Source: Candidatus Thorarchaeota archaeon (lineage in GTDB: Archaea; Asgardarchaeota; Heimdallarchaeia; Hodarchaeales; Hodarchaeaceae). From it: 32,000 nt of DNA. Where the stretch lies: positions 1 through 32,000 of the forward strand of contig JBHLRO010000009.1 in NCBI GenBank assembly GCA_048882505.1, read 5' to 3'. The notes under the pieces were generated by a model. The model had not been told where the DNA came from, ran no database searches, and saw only the letters and a list, made by a program, of their open reading frames with translations. Numbering within the stretch: position 1 is the stretch's first letter; each line of letters begins with the position of its first letter. This document shows positions 2,995 through 12,151 of this stretch, piece after piece. Position numbers and translations under genes: made by a program.

Positions 2995-4026
2995 TTAGTG
3001 AGGAACTTCATCCAGGGTAAAAATACAGTTGCCACGTCCTCCCTGGTCACACAAGGGATCCTCGGACATTTGGAATTGCTTGCCCAATACCTCGGACGCA
3101 TATCCGCTCCAGATATAACCTAGGAATCTACAGAACTCAGGAGTTGTTTGGTGTTTCCCATAAAACATAAGCTCATCGATCTCTTCTGGCGGAAGTAACC
3201 CTATTCCCTTCAAAATCTGGTGATTTTTAAGGCTGGGGAATTCATAGCGTATTAATCTTGCGATTTCGCATCCAAGAGCATGGGCGTATTTAAACTGCTC
3301 TTCTTTGCTGCTGCCCTCTAACTTTAGATATAAAACCTCCACCAGTTTAAGTGGATAGGCCCTGATATCTTGTCTGTTCAGCAACTCAGGACTAAATTCT
3401 TCGATCACACCTCGAGTCGCCTCGACCATATATCGGGTTACATCTTGAATGCGAACTCCAGTTCCCAGTATCGGGGAAAGTAGATCTCCAGCTGAAAGCA
3501 AAACATCAGATTCTTCCTCGGGTTGATCGGATTCGTCACGGGTTTTATGGATTGTTTCAGCGAAAACATCCTCTGATGCTCGAAACTGAATTTCGTAGCT
3601 GAAACGGGGTGGAATCATACCCTCTTCTATGAAATCGGCCCGAACCTTGGTTTTAAGGAAAGAATACCCAATCCCTTTGATTATACTAAGCAGTAGCAGC
3701 TTCATTAATTCCATTTCTTGATCATTTGTCGGTTTCCACAGACGTCCTTTTCCAAGGAGAACTCTCCCAATCCTTACGTCCTCAACCCATTCAACTTCGC
3801 ATGGAGAAAAGCCCAAGGACCCTAAAAAAAGTTTGGCCTGCGAAAGAGGGTTGTCAGTGGATGCAAGAGCAAATGAAGATTTAACTAAATCGAGTATAGT
3901 TGTTTCTAAGAGTTGTCGGGTCTCAGGTGTGTTCGATTGATTTAATAGAGCTTGTGCTAGTTTCATTATAGCAAGTGTGAGAAACCGTTTTACTCGTACG
4001 CCGGCGATGGCTTCAGAATGGCTCAT
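2995..4026 (-). CDS. V4R-domain protein, probably with a second degenerate V4R/Bet3-like domain in the N-terminal half
   Basis: C-terminal FCRFLGYIWSGYASEVLG...EDPLCDQGGRGNCIFTL fits the V4R Cys pattern; N-half LGSLGF...LLSIIKGIGYSFL...IQF parallels it without the Cys residues; acidic linker between halves. Confidence 0.7.
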   Translation of the reverse strand: MSHSEAIAGVRVKRFLTLAIMKLAQALLNQSNTPETRQLLETTILDLVKSSFALASTDNPLSQAKLFLGSLGFSPCEVEWVEDVRIGRVLLGKGRLWKPTNDQEMELMKLLLLSIIKGIGYSFLKTKVRADFIEEGMIPPRFSYEIQFRASEDVFAETIHKTRDESDQPEEESDVLLSAGDLLSPILGTGVRIQDVTRYMVEATRGVIEEFSPELLNRQDIRAYPLKLVEVLYLKLEGSSKEEQFKYAHALGCEIARLIRYEFPSLKNHQILKGIGLLPPEEIDELMFYGKHQTTPEFCRFLGYIWSGYASEVLGKQFQMSEDPLCDQGGRGNCIFTLDEVPH

Positions 4027-4227
4027 CTCGGTTCACACATTAATGATGGGTAGTTGCAGGAAAGAATGAGTTTATCAGAATAAATCGGAAGGAATATATC
4101 AGAATCCAGTTTGTGACTTTACTAAGATCAAAGGGTTGTGATTTTTAAAGCCTTTTGATTGAAAACATAACAGACAAAGGTTTTATCGTGCTTTTCTTAT
4201 AGCTAGCATAAGAAGGCGATTGAATAT

Positions 4228-4602
4228 ATGAGTCGGGTTGTCCGGTTAGTACGATTTTTCAAAAAACTTTTTATCCCTGTACTCGACCATGATGCCGCCC
4301 AAGAGGCCGAAAGAAGGAAATCAATTGCTCAATCGATTTCAGATGATCAAATCCACCTATCGACCGTCAGAAACGCCTTGCAGGTGCCTGAGGCCTCGAT
4401 AGCAGATAAATTAACTTTTGCTCTTTCTTCAATGCCTGAAGCAACAACAGATTTCCCTTATGCAAAAGGATTGTTCCTAGATATACTAGAGTATCTTGAG
4501 GCGAACCGGGAAGTATCGTCCGAGGAAGCCAATACCTTAAGGACAACTATCGAAGACATATCCAGCGTTCAGGAACTGATGCTGATGAGTGCTGCGTCGT
4601 AA
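4228..4602 (+). CDS. Hypothetical all-helical protein with basic amphipathic N-terminus
   Basis: 124-aa ATG ORF occupying the gap between V4R and GTPase genes; no recognised motif. Confidence 0.65.
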   Translation: MSRVVRLVRFFKKLFIPVLDHDAAQEAERRKSIAQSISDDQIHLSTVRNALQVPEASIADKLTFALSSMPEATTDFPYAKGLFLDILEYLEANREVSSEEANTLRTTIEDISSVQELMLMSAAS

Positions 4603-4713
4603 CTGAACCTACTTCTTTTCTTTTGGCATTGGAGAAACATATTCTGGAAGATCTGATCGTAATCATTAGGGCCCAACTAATTCGCGCCGAAGAGAAAAGG
4701 TTTTTTGGCTGAT

Positions 4714-5289
4714 TCAGAGATCCTGTTCTGTTTCAACTGGTTCCAGGTTGTCTCTGTGGACATTAACTAATAATTCCGCAAGTTCCGCGAACGTCTCCTC
4801 CACTCTGTGGCCCGTTTTGGCGCTGGTTTCAAAAAAGTTTTCAGCGCCCAGTTCATCTATTCCTGCTCTCCTTCCTTCTTCTGGCGTAATAACCCGCTCT
4901 TCCTCTAGATCATCTTTATTACCAACAAGATATAACCTAGCCTCAGGTGAATACTTTCTTAATTGTTCTACCCATAAAGGCAGTTTTTCAAGCGTATCTT
5001 TCCTAGTTAGATCATATACGAGTAATGCTCCTGATACTCCCTGGAAAAACACTCGACCAACTTGAGTGGATCGTGCATGACCTCCAATATCCCATATCTG
5101 TAACCCAACACGGAATATTTCCCCATCTCTTTCCAAACGAACCGTCTTAACTAAGAAATTTGCCCCGATGGTTGCCATATAATCCCCAGGGAAACGTCCC
5201 TCGACGTAGCGCAGGACTAAAGATGATTTCCCCACTCTAAATTCTCCAACCAGCAGGATTTTCGCCAGATAGTTATATTGAAGGCCCAT
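4714..5289 (-). CDS. Rab-like small GTPase (Ras superfamily), atypical G1/G3
   Basis: G1 GEFRVGKSS, G2 ATIG, G3 WDIGGH, G4 NKDD, G5 SAK; no C-terminal Cys prenylation motif. Confidence 0.93.
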   Translation of the reverse strand: MGLQYNYLAKILLVGEFRVGKSSLVLRYVEGRFPGDYMATIGANFLVKTVRLERDGEIFRVGLQIWDIGGHARSTQVGRVFFQGVSGALLVYDLTRKDTLEKLPLWVEQLRKYSPEARLYLVGNKDDLEEERVITPEEGRRAGIDELGAENFFETSAKTGHRVEETFAELAELLVNVHRDNLEPVETEQDL

Positions 5290-5513
5290 TTCTTTCTACA
5301 ACGATGGATTCATTGGAAATTTCTCTTAACCGGTTACAATTCAAATCTTGAACATAGATAAAAAAAGCTTGCTCCGTAACCTGAAATTCGGTATACACCG
5401 AATTCGCACCCAATTTTTTGTTTATCTTTATCTATGACCAAACAACTGCCAACAATGCGAAAATGATGCGACCAAAAATAAAAACGCTTTCAGAAATTCA
5501 AGAAGAAGATAGT

Positions 5514-5771
5514 ATGAAAACATTTTTCCGTACACTATTGGAGATCCGTCAACTTCTTCGCCGTCCCAAGGGAAATTCCATAACCTTCAGTGTCTGTCCT
5601 GTGTGTTTTTCAGATGTTAAACGTCTGCCGACTTTTCTAAGCTTTATAGTGCCACCCGTCTATTACTGCGAATCCTGTGGGTATAAAGGCCCTATATTTG
5701 CTGAAATATCATTAGATCCAGAAAGTACAGATTTGGTTGACCCAAATCATAAACAAACAGAGGAGACATAG
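5514..5771 (+). CDS. Small zinc-ribbon protein (CPVC...CESCGY); start uncertain (TTG 5418, ATG 5463 or ATG 5514)
   Basis: Two CxxC pairs with GYKGP tail; ends 6 nt before the M20 gene, so likely co-transcribed. Confidence 0.7.
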   Translation: MKTFFRTLLEIRQLLRRPKGNSITFSVCPVCFSDVKRLPTFLSFIVPPVYYCESCGYKGPIFAEISLDPESTDLVDPNHKQTEET

Positions 5772-5777
5772 ATAAAC

Positions 5778-6926
5778 GTGTCAGATACAATAAGAATCTT
5801 GAAAGAATTAGTTAAGCGGAACACCGAAAATCCCCCAGGAAAAACCAGACATATAGTGGAATGGATTCACGAATGGGCAATCAAAGAAGGAATTACTTCC
5901 GAATGTGACTTTTATGATAAGGAAAAGGCTAATATTATTCTCTCTGTTGGAGATGCATCTCATTCTCTTGTCCTTACAGGTCATCTAGATACCGTACCGA
6001 TTGGAGAAAGATCAAACTGGACCAAGGATCCCACAGGTGCTCAGGAATTAGATGGATATATATATGGAAGGGGCTCAGCTGACATGAAGGCCGGAGTTGC
6101 CGCTTGCCTAAGCGCCGTAAGGGAATTCCATCAATTATCTGAAAATAAGGATTTAAGTTATATGGTCACGTTTTTGGGGACATCTGATGAGGAGATTGGT
6201 CTTGGAGGAGCAAAACATGCCCTAAAACGTGGAATTATGAATAATGCCGATTTTCTTCTGGTGGCTGAACCAACTGGACTTAATGTGGGAATAGCCGAAA
6301 AAGCCGTTTTATGGATGACAATTCAAGCTAGAGGAAGATCTGCACACGGATCGACTCCAGAAAAAGGAGTCAATGCCATTGAAGCCATAACCGATCTCTT
6401 TCCTATGCTACGATCTGCCCTTCCAAAACTTCGCGATCCCATTTTAGGCCAAAGCACATTAAACATTGGAGTCATCCAAGGGGGTAAGAGTGCTAACGTG
6501 GTTCCAGAGTATGCTGAATTACAATGCGATTACAGGCTGGTTCCGCCGATAAATCCCCGGGATTTTGCAAAAAAAATCGCAGATCACCTGAAAATTGAGA
6601 TGCAAAGTTCTTCAGCAGAGTTTGCACATTGTGTGCAACAGATAATGGCACCTCTGTCCATCTCCCCCGATAATGAATTTGTGAAAGAATTCATAAAAAT
6701 AAACAAAAGTTCAGGTCGAACCTCTATAATCGGTCTCAATTACGGGACTGATGCCGCCGTTTTAGTGGGAGAAGCAGAAAACCCAGTTCCGTTTGTAATC
6801 TATGGACCTGGAGATCCTCAGGCAATTCACATTGCTGATGAACGTGTTGCAATTGCGGAGGTGCTTGAAGCGGAACGTATTATCTTGCAATTTCTAAAGA
6901 AGACCGCACTCTCATCTCCAGCCTAG
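5778..6926 (+). CDS. M20 family metallo-hydrolase (ArgE/DapE-like deacylase), GTG start
   Basis: GHLDTVP, GRGSADMK, DEEIG, AEPT, GRSAHGS, GTDA, HIADE metal-binding motifs. Confidence 0.93.
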   Translation: MSDTIRILKELVKRNTENPPGKTRHIVEWIHEWAIKEGITSECDFYDKEKANIILSVGDASHSLVLTGHLDTVPIGERSNWTKDPTGAQELDGYIYGRGSADMKAGVAACLSAVREFHQLSENKDLSYMVTFLGTSDEEIGLGGAKHALKRGIMNNADFLLVAEPTGLNVGIAEKAVLWMTIQARGRSAHGSTPEKGVNAIEAITDLFPMLRSALPKLRDPILGQSTLNIGVIQGGKSANVVPEYAELQCDYRLVPPINPRDFAKKIADHLKIEMQSSSAEFAHCVQQIMAPLSISPDNEFVKEFIKINKSSGRTSIIGLNYGTDAAVLVGEAENPVPFVIYGPGDPQAIHIADERVAIAEVLEAERIILQFLKKTALSSPA

Positions 6927-8230: not shown

Positions 8231-8899
8231 CTACAAGAGTATCTCCGAATGGATAAAGGTGATTCTGTTATTGATCATATCTCGGAGGGCATTATCCACG
8301 CTATCCTCTGGTGATGCAACAGGTTTGGTAAGATCTAATAGGAAAACAACATCGAAATCATACCTCTTGGCATCAATCGCAGAGAAATAAACACAGTAAT
8401 CTAGAGCCAAACCACACAGAAAAACCCTACTTACCTTAAGGCCCTTTAGAAACGCGTGCAAGCCTGTTTGTGTTGTCCTATCATTTTCAACGAAGGTCGA
8501 ATATGAATCAATTGCCGCACGATATCCTTTCCGAATGATAAGATTGGCCATGGTCGTGTTTAGTTCGGAGGAAAACTCGGCACCTTTCGTACCTTGGACA
8601 CAATGGTCAGGCCATAAAACTGGCCCAATGCCTGGTGTCTCGTACAGATCAAAGGGCTTTTTTCCTTCGTGCGAGCTCGCAAAGGACTGATGACCAGGTG
8701 GATGCCAATCCTGAGTAAGTATGATTAGATTCTTCGAGAAAAGGGCACCGATTCTATTAATACCTCGAATGATAGTGTCTCCATCCTTCACAGCGAGTGC
8801 CCCACCTGGTAGAAAATCATTTTGCATATCTACTACAATTAACGCGTCTTTCTCCTTCACCTCAATATCAGCAGCCAGTTCAACTTGGGAAATTTCCAT
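8231..8899 (-). CDS. pncA: Nicotinamidase/pyrazinamidase; true start probably ATG 8899 rather than the track's 8986
   Basis: VDMQNDF, QDWHP..H, WPDHCVQGT.GAE, IIRKG, GLALDYCV (Asp-Lys-Cys triad). Confidence 0.95.
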   Translation of the reverse strand: MEISQVELAADIEVKEKDALIVVDMQNDFLPGGALAVKDGDTIIRGINRIGALFSKNLIILTQDWHPPGHQSFASSHEGKKPFDLYETPGIGPVLWPDHCVQGTKGAEFSSELNTTMANLIIRKGYRAAIDSYSTFVENDRTTQTGLHAFLKGLKVSRVFLCGLALDYCVYFSAIDAKRYDFDVVFLLDLTKPVASPEDSVDNALRDMINNRITFIHSEILL

Positions 8900-9004
8900 G
8901 GAACACACCCTAATACCAATGACCAAATATATCCAAAATGTTTTTGAAAACTTTCCTTTCTCTAAAGCGACACCTAAACGGAACATCCTGGAGAAAAACC
9001 AATA

Positions 9005-10501
9005 ATGTTCGGATATACTAATGAACGGGGGCTTTTCACCGATTTTTATGAGTTAACAATGGCACAAGGTTATTTCGACACCGTGGGATCAAACGTTAAG
9101 GCGACCTTTGATCTTTTTTTTAGATCCAATCCGTTTAACGGAGGGTATACTGTCGCATGCGGGATACCACCAGCCTTGGAATACCTAGAAAACTTCCAAT
9201 TTTCCCCAGAGGAACTCGAATACCTGGCCGGTCTTGATACGTTTAGTGAAAACTTTCTGAACTATCTTGAAACGGTCAGGTTTACGGGTGATGTAGAGGC
9301 TGTCAAGGAGGGAACTATAGTTTTTCCACAAACTCCAGTCCTCAAGGTAACAGCACCCCTTATTGAGGCTCAGCTAGTTGAATCTGCTTTACTTAACATC
9401 ATCAATTATTCAACTCTGATCGCCACCAAGGCCGTACGAATTGTTTATGCGGCGCGCGGGGGAAAAGTGGTCGAATTTGGCCTACGTAGGGCTCAAGGCG
9501 ATGGCGCATATCTCGGAACCAGGGCAGCTTTGATCGGGGGGTGTGTTGGGACATCCTTTGTTGATGGGGCCAGAATGTGGCAGTGTCCTCCCATCGGTAC
9601 CCAAGCACACAGTTGGGTACAAGCTTTTTCGTCGGAACTTGAAGCTTTTCAAGAATATGCTAAAGTTTTTCCTGATAATTGCCTATTACTGATTGATACA
9701 TACAATGTACTAGAATCGGGCCTCCCCAATGCGGTGCAGGTAGCCAAAGACCTGCGGAAGAAAGGTAAGAAATTAACTGGCGTTAGAATCGATTCAGGGG
9801 ATTTAGCTTACTTATCCATCCGTGTATACGAGGCTTTTCGAGAGGCTGGTTTTCCTGATATCAGTATTGTGCTCTCCAATGAATTAGACGAATATACAAT
9901 TACGTCTATTGTGAATGAGATTCGCGATACGCGAAACAGAGCCCAGTCAAAGGAAGATTTCGTGTTAAAGGAGGAAACTGTGAAACATATAGTATATGGT
10001 GTGGGAACAAAGCTTATAACAGGGGGTGACCAAGCAGCTCTAGGAGGGGTGTATAAACTGACAGAATTAGATGGAAAACCCCGGATCAAGGTTAGTGAAA
10101 ACATTGCAAAAACAATAAACCCAGGGGCAAAAAACGTATGGCGGATAAAAGACATGACAAGCCAAAAATACATCGCAGATGTCTTATGTCTCGAATCGGA
10201 AGCTGTCCCGACAGAAAATTCGTGGATTCGACACCCAATTGATCTCGTGAAAAAATTTAAACTGCCACAAGATGTTGTCTCCGAATCCTTACTTTTCCGA
10301 ATCATGGAAAAGGGGAAGAAACTAATAGAAACTTCACCTACGGATTGGCAGGAAGGCCAAATTCATGTGAAAAGCCAATTAGCGCGTTTAGATCCGACAT
10401 ACATACGCTTGCTTAATCCACATGTCTTCAAAGTTTCTCTTAGCGAGCTCCTCTTCGAGACAAAAATGCGAATGATTAAAAATATCAGGCAAAATGCCTG
10501 A
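9005..10501 (+). CDS. pncB: Nicotinate phosphoribosyltransferase
   Basis: LFTDFYELTMAQGY, EFGLRRAQG, GTQAHSW (phospho-His), LIDTY, RIDSGDL, GGVYKL; divergent from pncA. Confidence 0.95.
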   Translation: MFGYTNERGLFTDFYELTMAQGYFDTVGSNVKATFDLFFRSNPFNGGYTVACGIPPALEYLENFQFSPEELEYLAGLDTFSENFLNYLETVRFTGDVEAVKEGTIVFPQTPVLKVTAPLIEAQLVESALLNIINYSTLIATKAVRIVYAARGGKVVEFGLRRAQGDGAYLGTRAALIGGCVGTSFVDGARMWQCPPIGTQAHSWVQAFSSELEAFQEYAKVFPDNCLLLIDTYNVLESGLPNAVQVAKDLRKKGKKLTGVRIDSGDLAYLSIRVYEAFREAGFPDISIVLSNELDEYTITSIVNEIRDTRNRAQSKEDFVLKEETVKHIVYGVGTKLITGGDQAALGGVYKLTELDGKPRIKVSENIAKTINPGAKNVWRIKDMTSQKYIADVLCLESEAVPTENSWIRHPIDLVKKFKLPQDVVSESLLFRIMEKGKKLIETSPTDWQEGQIHVKSQLARLDPTYIRLLNPHVFKVSLSELLFETKMRMIKNIRQNA

Positions 10502-10690
10502 AGCGGCTAGAACGGGTTCTAAAATCAACCGAAAACAATTAGAACATTTTCTAAATTTTCGCACCAGAGACCCAGACGGCTTCAAATATCGGCAATGTTG
10601 GAGTCCAATGGTAGAAAACCGGAAAAAAATTGTCTAAATCCTCCCCAAGTTCCGTTTTATTCGTCAACGTGTAAACTAGGAGAATTCAAA

Positions 10691-11239
10691 GTGCCTCTAT
10701 ATAAAATATGCCTTCTGGGTGATGGTGGGGTCGGAAAAACTTCACTGAGAGAACGCTTTCTCGGTAAAGGATTTCAAAGCGGATATATTTTAACCATTGG
10801 CGCGGATTTTGCTGTTCAAGACTTAAATATCGATGGTCAACAGTACAAATTCCAGATTTGGGATCTAGCAGGGCAACAAAGGTTCAGTGCCGTCAGGGCT
10901 TTGTATTACAAAGGTTCCCACGGTGCTATTCTCGTTTTTGATAGTTCACGTCCAGAGTCGCTCTACAATCTTGCCAATTGGAAACGTGAACTCTTTACGA
11001 ATGTTGGCAGGGAAATTCCGTATATTCTACTTGGAAATAAAGCGGACCTGCCAAATGCCATCGACAATGGAGCCCTCGACCAGTTCATTCAAACCTCCCA
11101 AGAAGAGATTTCTGATATCCCCTTCGAGATAAATTATCTTGATACTTCAGCAAAAACTGGACTCAATGTCACCGAAGCATTCCAATCGCTGGGGAGAACA
11201 ATAAAGGATTACATTTCGGTGTATAAGGAAAGACAATAG
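10691..11239 (+). CDS. Rab-like small GTPase with canonical motifs; probable GTG start at 10691
   Basis: GDGGVGKTS, LTIGADF, WDLAGQ, NKAD, SAK; GGAG RBS upstream of GTG; no prenylation motif. Confidence 0.94.
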   Translation: MPLYKICLLGDGGVGKTSLRERFLGKGFQSGYILTIGADFAVQDLNIDGQQYKFQIWDLAGQQRFSAVRALYYKGSHGAILVFDSSRPESLYNLANWKRELFTNVGREIPYILLGNKADLPNAIDNGALDQFIQTSQEEISDIPFEINYLDTSAKTGLNVTEAFQSLGRTIKDYISVYKERQ

Positions 11240-11299: not shown

Positions 11300-12151
11300 T
11301 TATCCTAATTCCTCGACTTGTTCGATAATACATTCTGGCCCTAGTTCCACTGATGTCCCTTGCACTAATTGGGCTTTAACACCTTCCAAATACACCTTTC
11401 CTTTTGCATAAATACTTTCTACCTTTAAAGAGGCCGAGGAACGATCCTGTTCAATATAAACATCCCCACCCGCAGAAAGATGACCGTCAATTCGACTCTT
11501 TCCACTGAGCTCTGACCGGAAAGATCCACTACAGTCTAGATTACCCTCTATTGTGTAAGAGCCGTTCATTTCTGCTTCATTGCAGGCTAGGTTTCCTTCC
11601 GCCTTTAATGCGCCGCTAGTACTCACCATCGCGCCATGTGCATTAACATCGCCTTCAATTTTACCAGAACCCGAAATAGAAAGCTTTTCCGTGACGGTTA
11701 ATGGCCCTTCAATCTTTAATGAGCCTGAACTCATGAGCTGCTCAGTTTCTAAGGCTCCACCCACCTTTAATGCCCCTGAAACTTTTAATTTCTGAGTTAC
11801 CATATCACCAGGAAGTGAACCTGATCCGCTGATTTTTATCTCGTCATCGGTTATCTCCCCAGACCCTGAAATGGAAATTGAGCCCCCTCGCCAGCCTTCT
11901 ACTCGTCCAGAGCCGGATATAGAGACGTACGAATCCGTGACCTTTCCTGAGCCCGAAATGGATACATAGGAAAGATCCTTCAAAAAGCTGTTCTCTTTAA
12001 TTACGGCCATCTGTTTCTCGAGTTGTGATTGATACTTCATTTTCAAAGTCTCATATTCATGTTCGGTGATTTCTTCGTTCTTGAGTCTAATATCAAGCGC
12101 TTTTAATAAGGTTTGTAACTCTTCAATCTCCTTACGCGACACATCATTCAC
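11300..12151 (-). CDS. Polymer-forming cytoskeletal (bactofilin-like, YhbE/YhbF-type) beta-helix protein with N-terminal SHOCT-like helical segment; GTG start
   Basis: Repeated ISGSG/VSGAL/SSGSL + GDV/GNL coils; N-terminal LKALDIRLKNEEITEHEYETLKMKY. Confidence 0.75.
   Translation of the reverse strand: MNDVSRKEIEELQTLLKALDIRLKNEEITEHEYETLKMKYQSQLEKQMAVIKENSFLKDLSYVSISGSGKVTDSYVSISGSGRVEGWRGGSISISGSGEITDDEIKISGSGSLPGDMVTQKLKVSGALKVGGALETEQLMSSGSLKIEGPLTVTEKLSISGSGKIEGDVNAHGAMVSTSGALKAEGNLACNEAEMNGSYTIEGNLDCSGSFRSELSGKSRIDGHLSAGGDVYIEQDRSSASLKVESIYAKGKVYLEGVKAQLVQGTSVELGPECIIEQVEELG

Follow-up and report, generated by a model that had tools for sequence, protein, structure and literature searches.

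Three described groups of proteins are among the closest to the subject of this study. Prokaryotic V4R domains (PF02830; MJ1460 and the PoxR, MopR and DmpR sensors) are regarded as domains that take up hydrophobic ligands and signal in cis or in trans, and most of them share the glycine pairs found in helices 2 and 5 of the Bet3 family (Podar 2008, PMC2253512). The Bet3 family itself (TRAPPC3/Bet3, TRAPPC6/Trs33 and TRAPPC5/Trs31; PF04051) belongs to the TRAPP complex, and Asgard archaea encode TRAPPC3/V4R-like proteins (Thor-TRAPPC3, PDB 7yh2 and 7yh3), in which shifting Zn sites serve as structural tethers and for which ligand binding has been proposed (Tran et al. 2024, PMC10933270). Here, we describe a 343-amino acid (aa) protein encoded on the minus strand at 2995-4026 of a 32,000-nucleotide window, the whole stretch of DNA that was analysed, in a metagenome-assembled genome of a member of the Hodarchaeales (Heimdallarchaeia, Asgard; 4.3 Mb, 94.6% complete). 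The protein is predicted to join a metal-free and a metal-binding V4R/Bet3 domain in one chain. A 124-aa gene and a gene for a 191-aa Rab-like GTPase lie next to it, and an earlier sequence-only reading had taken this arrangement for a possible proto-TRAPP/Rab neighbourhood. Our analysis supports the tandem fold and indicates that the Rab neighbourhood is largely incidental. Below, L, G and P denote loci, genomes and protein family members, C the contigs of the window genome (G000), and f1 to f33 host families; f1 is the family of the window, f2 belongs to the same order, f3-f7 belong to the same class, and f33 lies outside the class.

The 343-aa protein has no Pfam or NCBIfam match. Pfam V4R did not exceed its curated cut-off, was weakly detected in 8 of 87 family members (best E 0.027), and is annotated in 15% of the members of the corresponding Atlas cluster. 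The TRAPP family PF04051 matched neither the protein nor 55 close members and is not among the Pfam families listed for the 87 members, while the search for it in the window genome had no positive control. The protein thus fails the Pfam tests for V4R and TRAPP alike, and its assignment as a TRAPP subunit lacks support. AlphaFold2 models built with 55 and 87 sequences contain two well-folded domains (predicted local distance difference test, pLDDT, 83 and 88; predicted template modelling score, pTM, 0.52 and 0.57). The N-domain (aa 1-153; 3568..4026, minus strand) is modelled as helices packed on an antiparallel sheet of four strands, with Z scores of 10-11 over 125-150 residues to TPC6, MopR, PoxR, BcsD and MJ1460. 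Foldseek ranked Bet3/TRAPPC3 first for the 343-aa protein (E 1.8e-4), and VIA-align placed human TPC6 at the top for the N-domain (Z 11.1, root-mean-square deviation (rmsd) 3.3, 134 aligned residues), followed by MopR and BcsD (Z 10.6 each), MJ1460 (10.2), Bet3 (10.0) and Thor-TRAPPC3 (8.4). The N-domain model thus has the V4R/Bet3/H-NOX superfamily fold and not an unrelated one, and because the top VIA-align rows are tied, it represents a superfamily member and not specifically a TRAPP subunit. The C-domain (aa 176-343; 2995..3501, minus strand) shows a profile match to the archaeal V4R protein MJ1460 (E 0.0015), and its model matches H-NOX relatives only (Z 5-7), the best being the H-NOX domain of sGC (Z 7.0, rmsd 4.2, 128 aligned residues). 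It has the same predicted fold, on weaker grounds than the N-domain and as part of the full-length model.

The two domains are joined by an acidic disordered linker (aa 154-175; 3502..3567, minus strand; pLDDT <50 at 155-175), the length of which varies by ~45 residues in the family (21-68 residues within the alignment span 150-185). Because the pTM values were 0.52 and 0.57, the models do not fix the position of one domain relative to the other. The models thus do not demonstrate the proposed intramolecular pseudo-heterodimer, and the linker is both disordered and variable in length. The parallel spacing of the two halves noted in the sequence-only reading holds at the level of the fold and fails at the level of sequence, where hhalign detected no significant similarity between them (Prob 0.4%, E 0.15). 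The resemblance of the N-half to Bet3 by eye likewise found no confirmation at the sequence level, as a profile of this half against PDB sequences returned only a spurious match to L9.

Conserved residues differ between the two domains. In the N-domain, G72 is present in 87/87 members, G92 in 84/87 and R95 in 83/87, and G120 is also kept; the C-domain conserves P185, G252, F301, W306 and G308. With respect to the glycine pairs, the N-domain possesses G118/G120 and no glycine in helix 2, and the C-domain retains G252 (87/87) and G308 (79/87) with variable partner glycines. The N-half has no metal site, its sole Cys (C76) being lineage-specific (34/87), and the absence of Cys ligands reported for it earlier is therefore borne out. 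In the C-domain, C299 and C334 are kept in 82/87 and 85/87 members, respectively, and 60/87 members carry four or five Cys. The remaining two ligands shift: in f4-f6 both are Cys of a loop, and in f1 one loop Cys is joined by C326. The Cys noted earlier in the C-half are thus present, except that the site in the window copy has three Cys only and H292 replaces the fourth: a ~9-aa deletion in this copy and its nearest relatives removed the loop Cys, and H292 stands at its place, as does a His in three distant members (P0063-65). A Cys3His Zn site formed by H292, C299, C326 and C334 is likely, judging from this residue pattern, and the shifting ligands around the fixed C299/C334 would fit a structural role of the Zn. 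The copy at L022:6001-7008 (P0058) has lost every metal-site Cys and retains its 124-aa and GTPase neighbours.

The distribution search covered 400 genomes of the phylum, including 83 of the class Heimdallarchaeia. One match per genome was found in 78 of the 83, with two fragmented cases consisting of two pieces each. Outside the class, two genomes of f33 carry the family, and the other ~315 genomes of the phylum yielded no convincing match. The members group by host family in a quick tree, and the family is single-copy and vertically inherited in Heimdallarchaeia. At L020:4928-5249, a disrupted second copy of part of the gene (aa 1-90, 57% identical) separates a roadblock gene from the intact copy. 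The gene is reduced to its final 96 aa at L098:7497-7787 (G066), where it abuts a nadC-like gene, probably reflecting an assembly junction; the distance of 5.4 kb between this fragment and an MglA-like gene was not counted for this reason.

The family resembles the Asgard TRAPPC3/V4R-like proteins in fold superfamily, Asgard origin and a shifting-ligand Zn site in a similar region. However, those proteins are single-domain homodimers, and the 343-aa protein, in which a metal-free domain is fused to a metal-binding one, is related to them at Z 7.8-8.4 with no sequence match. The TRAPP Bet3 family shares the fold of the metal-free N-domain (Z 9-11, rmsd 3.2-4.9), and the two unlike domains recall its heterodimer. 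On the other hand, the protein has no PF04051 match, its N-domain lacks the helix-2 glycine pair, identity is 6-16%, no longin partner is found among the adjacent genes of the window, and docking of the halves is not predicted. Prokaryotic V4R proteins have in common with it the fold (Z 10.0-10.6), the profile match of the C-domain to MJ1460 and the C...C signature, whereas the tandem protein remains below the Pfam cut-off, carries no effector domain, and is a class-wide single-copy tandem form where V4R is patchy. A literature search yielded no paper on this tandem V4R family in the library covered, and we regard the family as a real variant of a known fold family that is apparently undescribed. 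Tandem V4R as such is neither rare nor unique. The V4R search of the window genome gave a match on contig C22 only, where a second, unrelated tandem V4R protein is encoded (G000:C22:33637-35235; 532 aa); it carries a thioredoxin-like CxxC domain at its N-terminus and is possibly a redox-linked V4R sensor.

The Rab-like GTPase (4714..5289, minus strand; Pfam Ras, E 3.6e-39) contains Ras-superfamily G1-G5 motifs with a Rab-like switch I (GEFRVGKS, YMATIGANF and NKDD), and its best PDB matches are Rab1a and Rab3. It has no C-terminal prenylation Cys. In its switch II (DIGGH, or DxGGH), His replaces the catalytic Gln in 18/18 orthologues, so that the GTPase may, on sequence grounds, be slow or dependent on partners; it is the only one with this His among about 30 GTPases scored in the genome. 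As reported earlier, the GTPase and V4R genes lie ~700 bp apart on the same strand (688 bp from the GTPase stop to the V4R start, both minus). The 124-aa gene (4228..4602) and the Zn-ribbon gene (CxxC...CxxC; 5418..5771; weak Zn_ribbon_8 match, E 0.02) exist as open reading frames (ORFs), both on the plus strand and not on that of the V4R and GTPase genes. The V4R and GTPase genes therefore cannot share a simple operon, gene orientation along the block being divergent, convergent and divergent.

The V4R gene stands side by side with those for the 124-aa protein and the GTPase in 17/17 f1 loci, and the sister locus L022 keeps the block with the V4R gene inverted. Nonetheless, the M20 peptidase gene (16/16 informative loci) and a phosphatase gene (15/15) are kept in the block equally with the GTPase. 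Orthologues of the GTPase were detected in 19/21 f1 and 2/2 f2 genomes and, at E<=1e-40, in 0/59 other genomes of the class; the V4R protein is retained in almost all of these 59. In the two f2 genomes, the V4R, 124-aa and GTPase genes are on separate contigs and the neighbours of the V4R gene differ. The genome encodes 34 proteins that are strongly Rab-like, and 4.9% of all its genes lie no more than two genes away from a small GTPase. A class-wide function of the V4R protein therefore cannot rest on this GTPase, whose orthologues were detected only in Hodarchaeales and are unlinked in f2. We conclude that the adjacency reflects a block of genes that became fixed in a single family of Hodarchaeales, with the Rab neighbourhood largely incidental, and that the GTPase is probably not a dedicated target of the V4R protein. 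The linkage proposed by the sequence-only reading is limited to one family and one sister locus, so that an action of the V4R protein on the neighbouring GTPase is poorly supported; the proto-TRAPP element of that reading fares no better, since bacterial V4R sensors and BcsD match the fold no less closely than TRAPP subunits do.

The explanation that we favour, and to which we give about even chances of being correct, is that the tandem protein works as a V4R-type ligand sensor or adaptor that signals in trans. Dimerisation would involve the helices at the N-termini of its domains, either inside one chain or between two, and a small ligand would be bound in a V4R cavity, with G92/R95, which are near-invariant in the metal-free domain, as the likely site. 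Zn in the C-domain would serve as a structural tether, and the signal would pass to a partner protein. Ligand binding is inferred here by analogy with known properties of V4R and TRAPPC3 proteins (PMC2253512, PMC10933270). Several observations weigh against this explanation. GTPase or roadblock neighbours recur above chance. The f1 block is tighter than the junction on its other side, where IDH is adjacent in 3/17 loci, and it persists through the inversion of the V4R gene in L022; some local coupling may therefore exist. Finally, P0058 lacks every metal-site Cys and P0054-57 have two Cys each, indicating that Zn is not essential.

The neighbours of the V4R gene differ by lineage, and they suggest a rather unlikely but substantial alternative, namely a TRAPP-like scaffold in which the tandem protein replaces the Bet3-family dimer, binds a roadblock or longin dimer and helps to regulate an MglA-type GTPase. 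In five distant loci (L020, L024, L055, L056 and L058), the next intact upstream gene is a divergently oriented 127-aa roadblock gene. The f5 loci have a roadblock - MglA-like - roadblock run (111-aa roadblock) in divergent orientation to the V4R gene, as well as a second MglA-like gene located after those for pantoate kinase and phosphopantothenate synthetase. A ~250-aa MglA-like GTPase (PDB matches to MglA only, E 4e-16) is present in f1-f7, f33 and six further genomes, a range nearly that of the V4R protein, and its gene is 0.3-5 kb away from that of the V4R protein in f33 (2/2), f5 (2) and f6 (4). In total, a GTPase or roadblock gene occurs no more than two genes away in 3-4 of 7-8 lineage arrangements, compared with a baseline of 6.2% (p about 0.001-0.01, in a post hoc count of arrangements that are not fully independent and have different partners). 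In addition, a Heimdall longin-TRAPPC3 fusion has been reported (Tran 2024, PMC10933270). However, the partners vary by lineage, no roadblock or MglA-like gene adjoins the V4R gene in f3, f4, f7 or G079, and all candidates in the window genome are on other contigs. The likeness to MglA/MglB (roadblock) modules seen in f5, f6, f33 and deep Hodarchaeales-like loci is one of gene order. Old regional synteny explains part of the association, as a shorter MglA-like gene lies 14-32 kb away in f4 and coenzyme A (CoA)-synthesis and translin genes also occur in this region in f4-f6. Class-wide co-distribution is also common to many vertically inherited genes, and no longer or fused form of the tandem protein was found among 31 representative matches. 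When a complex of the V4R protein and two copies of the 129-aa roadblock protein of the genome was predicted, the score was 0.00 in a run without controls, which is no evidence either way. Even so, the MglA-type GTPase and roadblock genes are a better lead than the Rab neighbour.

Several further features of these genes were observed. The ~250-aa MglA-like GTPase has a long insertion after its G5 motif and a paralogue at C2:215455. It is clustered with two Rab-like GTPases at G000:C2:151568-156505, in the same order in G066, and a Rab-like gene also adjoins it in G397 and G078. Its identity with Rup3 (Vargova et al.) was considered and is not established, the motifs and PDB matches being MglA-like. 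In the window genome, MglA-like GTPases are encoded at C2:151568-152320 and C18:14598-15197, and roadblock proteins at C8:75549 and C18:15871. The closest approach to an MglA/MglB module in the window genome is a roadblock - MglA-like - small gene - roadblock cluster at G000:C18:14090-16275, the GTPase of which is single-copy in 78/83 genomes of the class. In f7 (L078-L087), the V4R gene is flanked by one or two genes for paralogous ~1037-aa proteins without a Pfam match, and a nickel-insertion (LarC-type) gene is also present; the N-terminus of the ~1037-aa proteins appears longin-like by eye, which a profile test did not confirm (Prob <1%).

It is also conceivable, though distinctly improbable, that the tandem protein has no GTPase-related role and either senses metabolites, such as compounds of the CoA pathway, or forms a structural oligomer in the manner of BcsD. 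The pantoate kinase and phosphopantothenate synthetase genes flank the V4R gene in f5/f6, often in the same orientation, and BcsD ties for the best fold match, but CoA-gene neighbours are absent in f1, f2, f4, f7 and f33.

A slightly smaller chance attaches to a young, family-level module, in which the V4R protein and the 124-aa protein form a membrane adaptor that the His-switch GTPase joined in f1. The 124-aa protein has a basic amphipathic N-terminal helix with a hydrophobic moment of 0.72 (top 1.4% of N-termini in the genome), and it has 39 homologues. In Pfam and Atlas searches, it gave no convincing match and nothing usable. Its homologues occur in 20/21 f1 and 2/2 f2 genomes, with two weak partial matches elsewhere, and it shares this Hodarchaeales-only range with the GTPase; furthermore, the inverted V4R gene of L022 is co-directional with the 124-aa gene at a distance of 15 bp. 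Against such a module, all three genes exist in f2 on different contigs, and a conserved divergent promoter alone can hold the V4R/124-aa pair together. Paralogues of the 124-aa protein were found at G067:C1:1811440, G068:C117:34368 and G060:C9:9943, where the match starts after the amphipathic helix.

Least probable, and to be given very little weight, is a Bet3/Trs33-like intramolecular pseudo-heterodimer acting as or within a guanine nucleotide exchange factor on the neighbouring Rab-like GTPase: although TRAPP proteins head both structural rankings, the genes are adjacent in 17/17 f1 loci and L022, and the His-switch GTPase may depend on partners, V4R sensors and BcsD score like TRAPP with Thor-TRAPPC3 lower, the domain arrangement has a pTM of 0.57, an opposite-strand gene separates the two genes, the GTPase has no detected orthologue outside Hodarchaeales at the threshold used and is unlinked in f2, no longin gene is among the genes adjacent to V4R in the window, it is the TRAPP longin pair Bet5/Trs23 that engages Ypt1 (PMC10933270), and no Asgard GTPase has been recovered as a specific sister of Rabs (10.1101/2024.02.28.582541).

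Further genes of the window were also inspected. The Zn-ribbon gene ends 6 bp before the start of the M20 peptidase gene (5778..6926, plus strand; Pfam M20), which served as the synteny control, and it heads and belongs with this downstream gene. Its true start is probably 5514, giving 85 aa, because most homologues are 80-98 aa long. Compared with L001, the V4R, 124-aa and GTPase genes show 42/13, 18/4 and 40/10 synonymous/nonsynonymous codon changes, respectively, and change relative to this close relative is mostly synonymous. DNA contigs span the stretch without a joint or a net frame change in the genes, and a sigma-70/terminator scan, of a type not suited to archaea, remained at chance level. 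A divergent pair of nicotinamidase and nicotinate phosphoribosyltransferase genes (nicotinamide adenine dinucleotide salvage) occupies 8231-10501. A second Rab-like GTPase is encoded at 10595-11239 (214-aa ORF, with an internal start that probably gives ~180 aa) with a canonical DLAGQ motif, and only four related loci have it at a distance of up to 6 kb from the V4R gene. Directly downstream, at 11300-12151, is a gene for a 283-aa protein with Gly/Ser-rich beta repeats that appears bactofilin- or adhesin-like by eye.

In this study, we found that the Rab-like neighbour at this locus should not be cited as evidence of a proto-TRAPP/Rab module. Published Asgard TRAPPC3/V4R proteins have a patchy range, in addition to being single-domain homodimers. 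The single-copy retention of a protein with unlike halves throughout Heimdallarchaeia is the mark of a conserved function in the lineage closest to eukaryotes, and the tandem family provides a concrete candidate, open to test, for the way in which dimers of the Bet3 fold became asymmetric.

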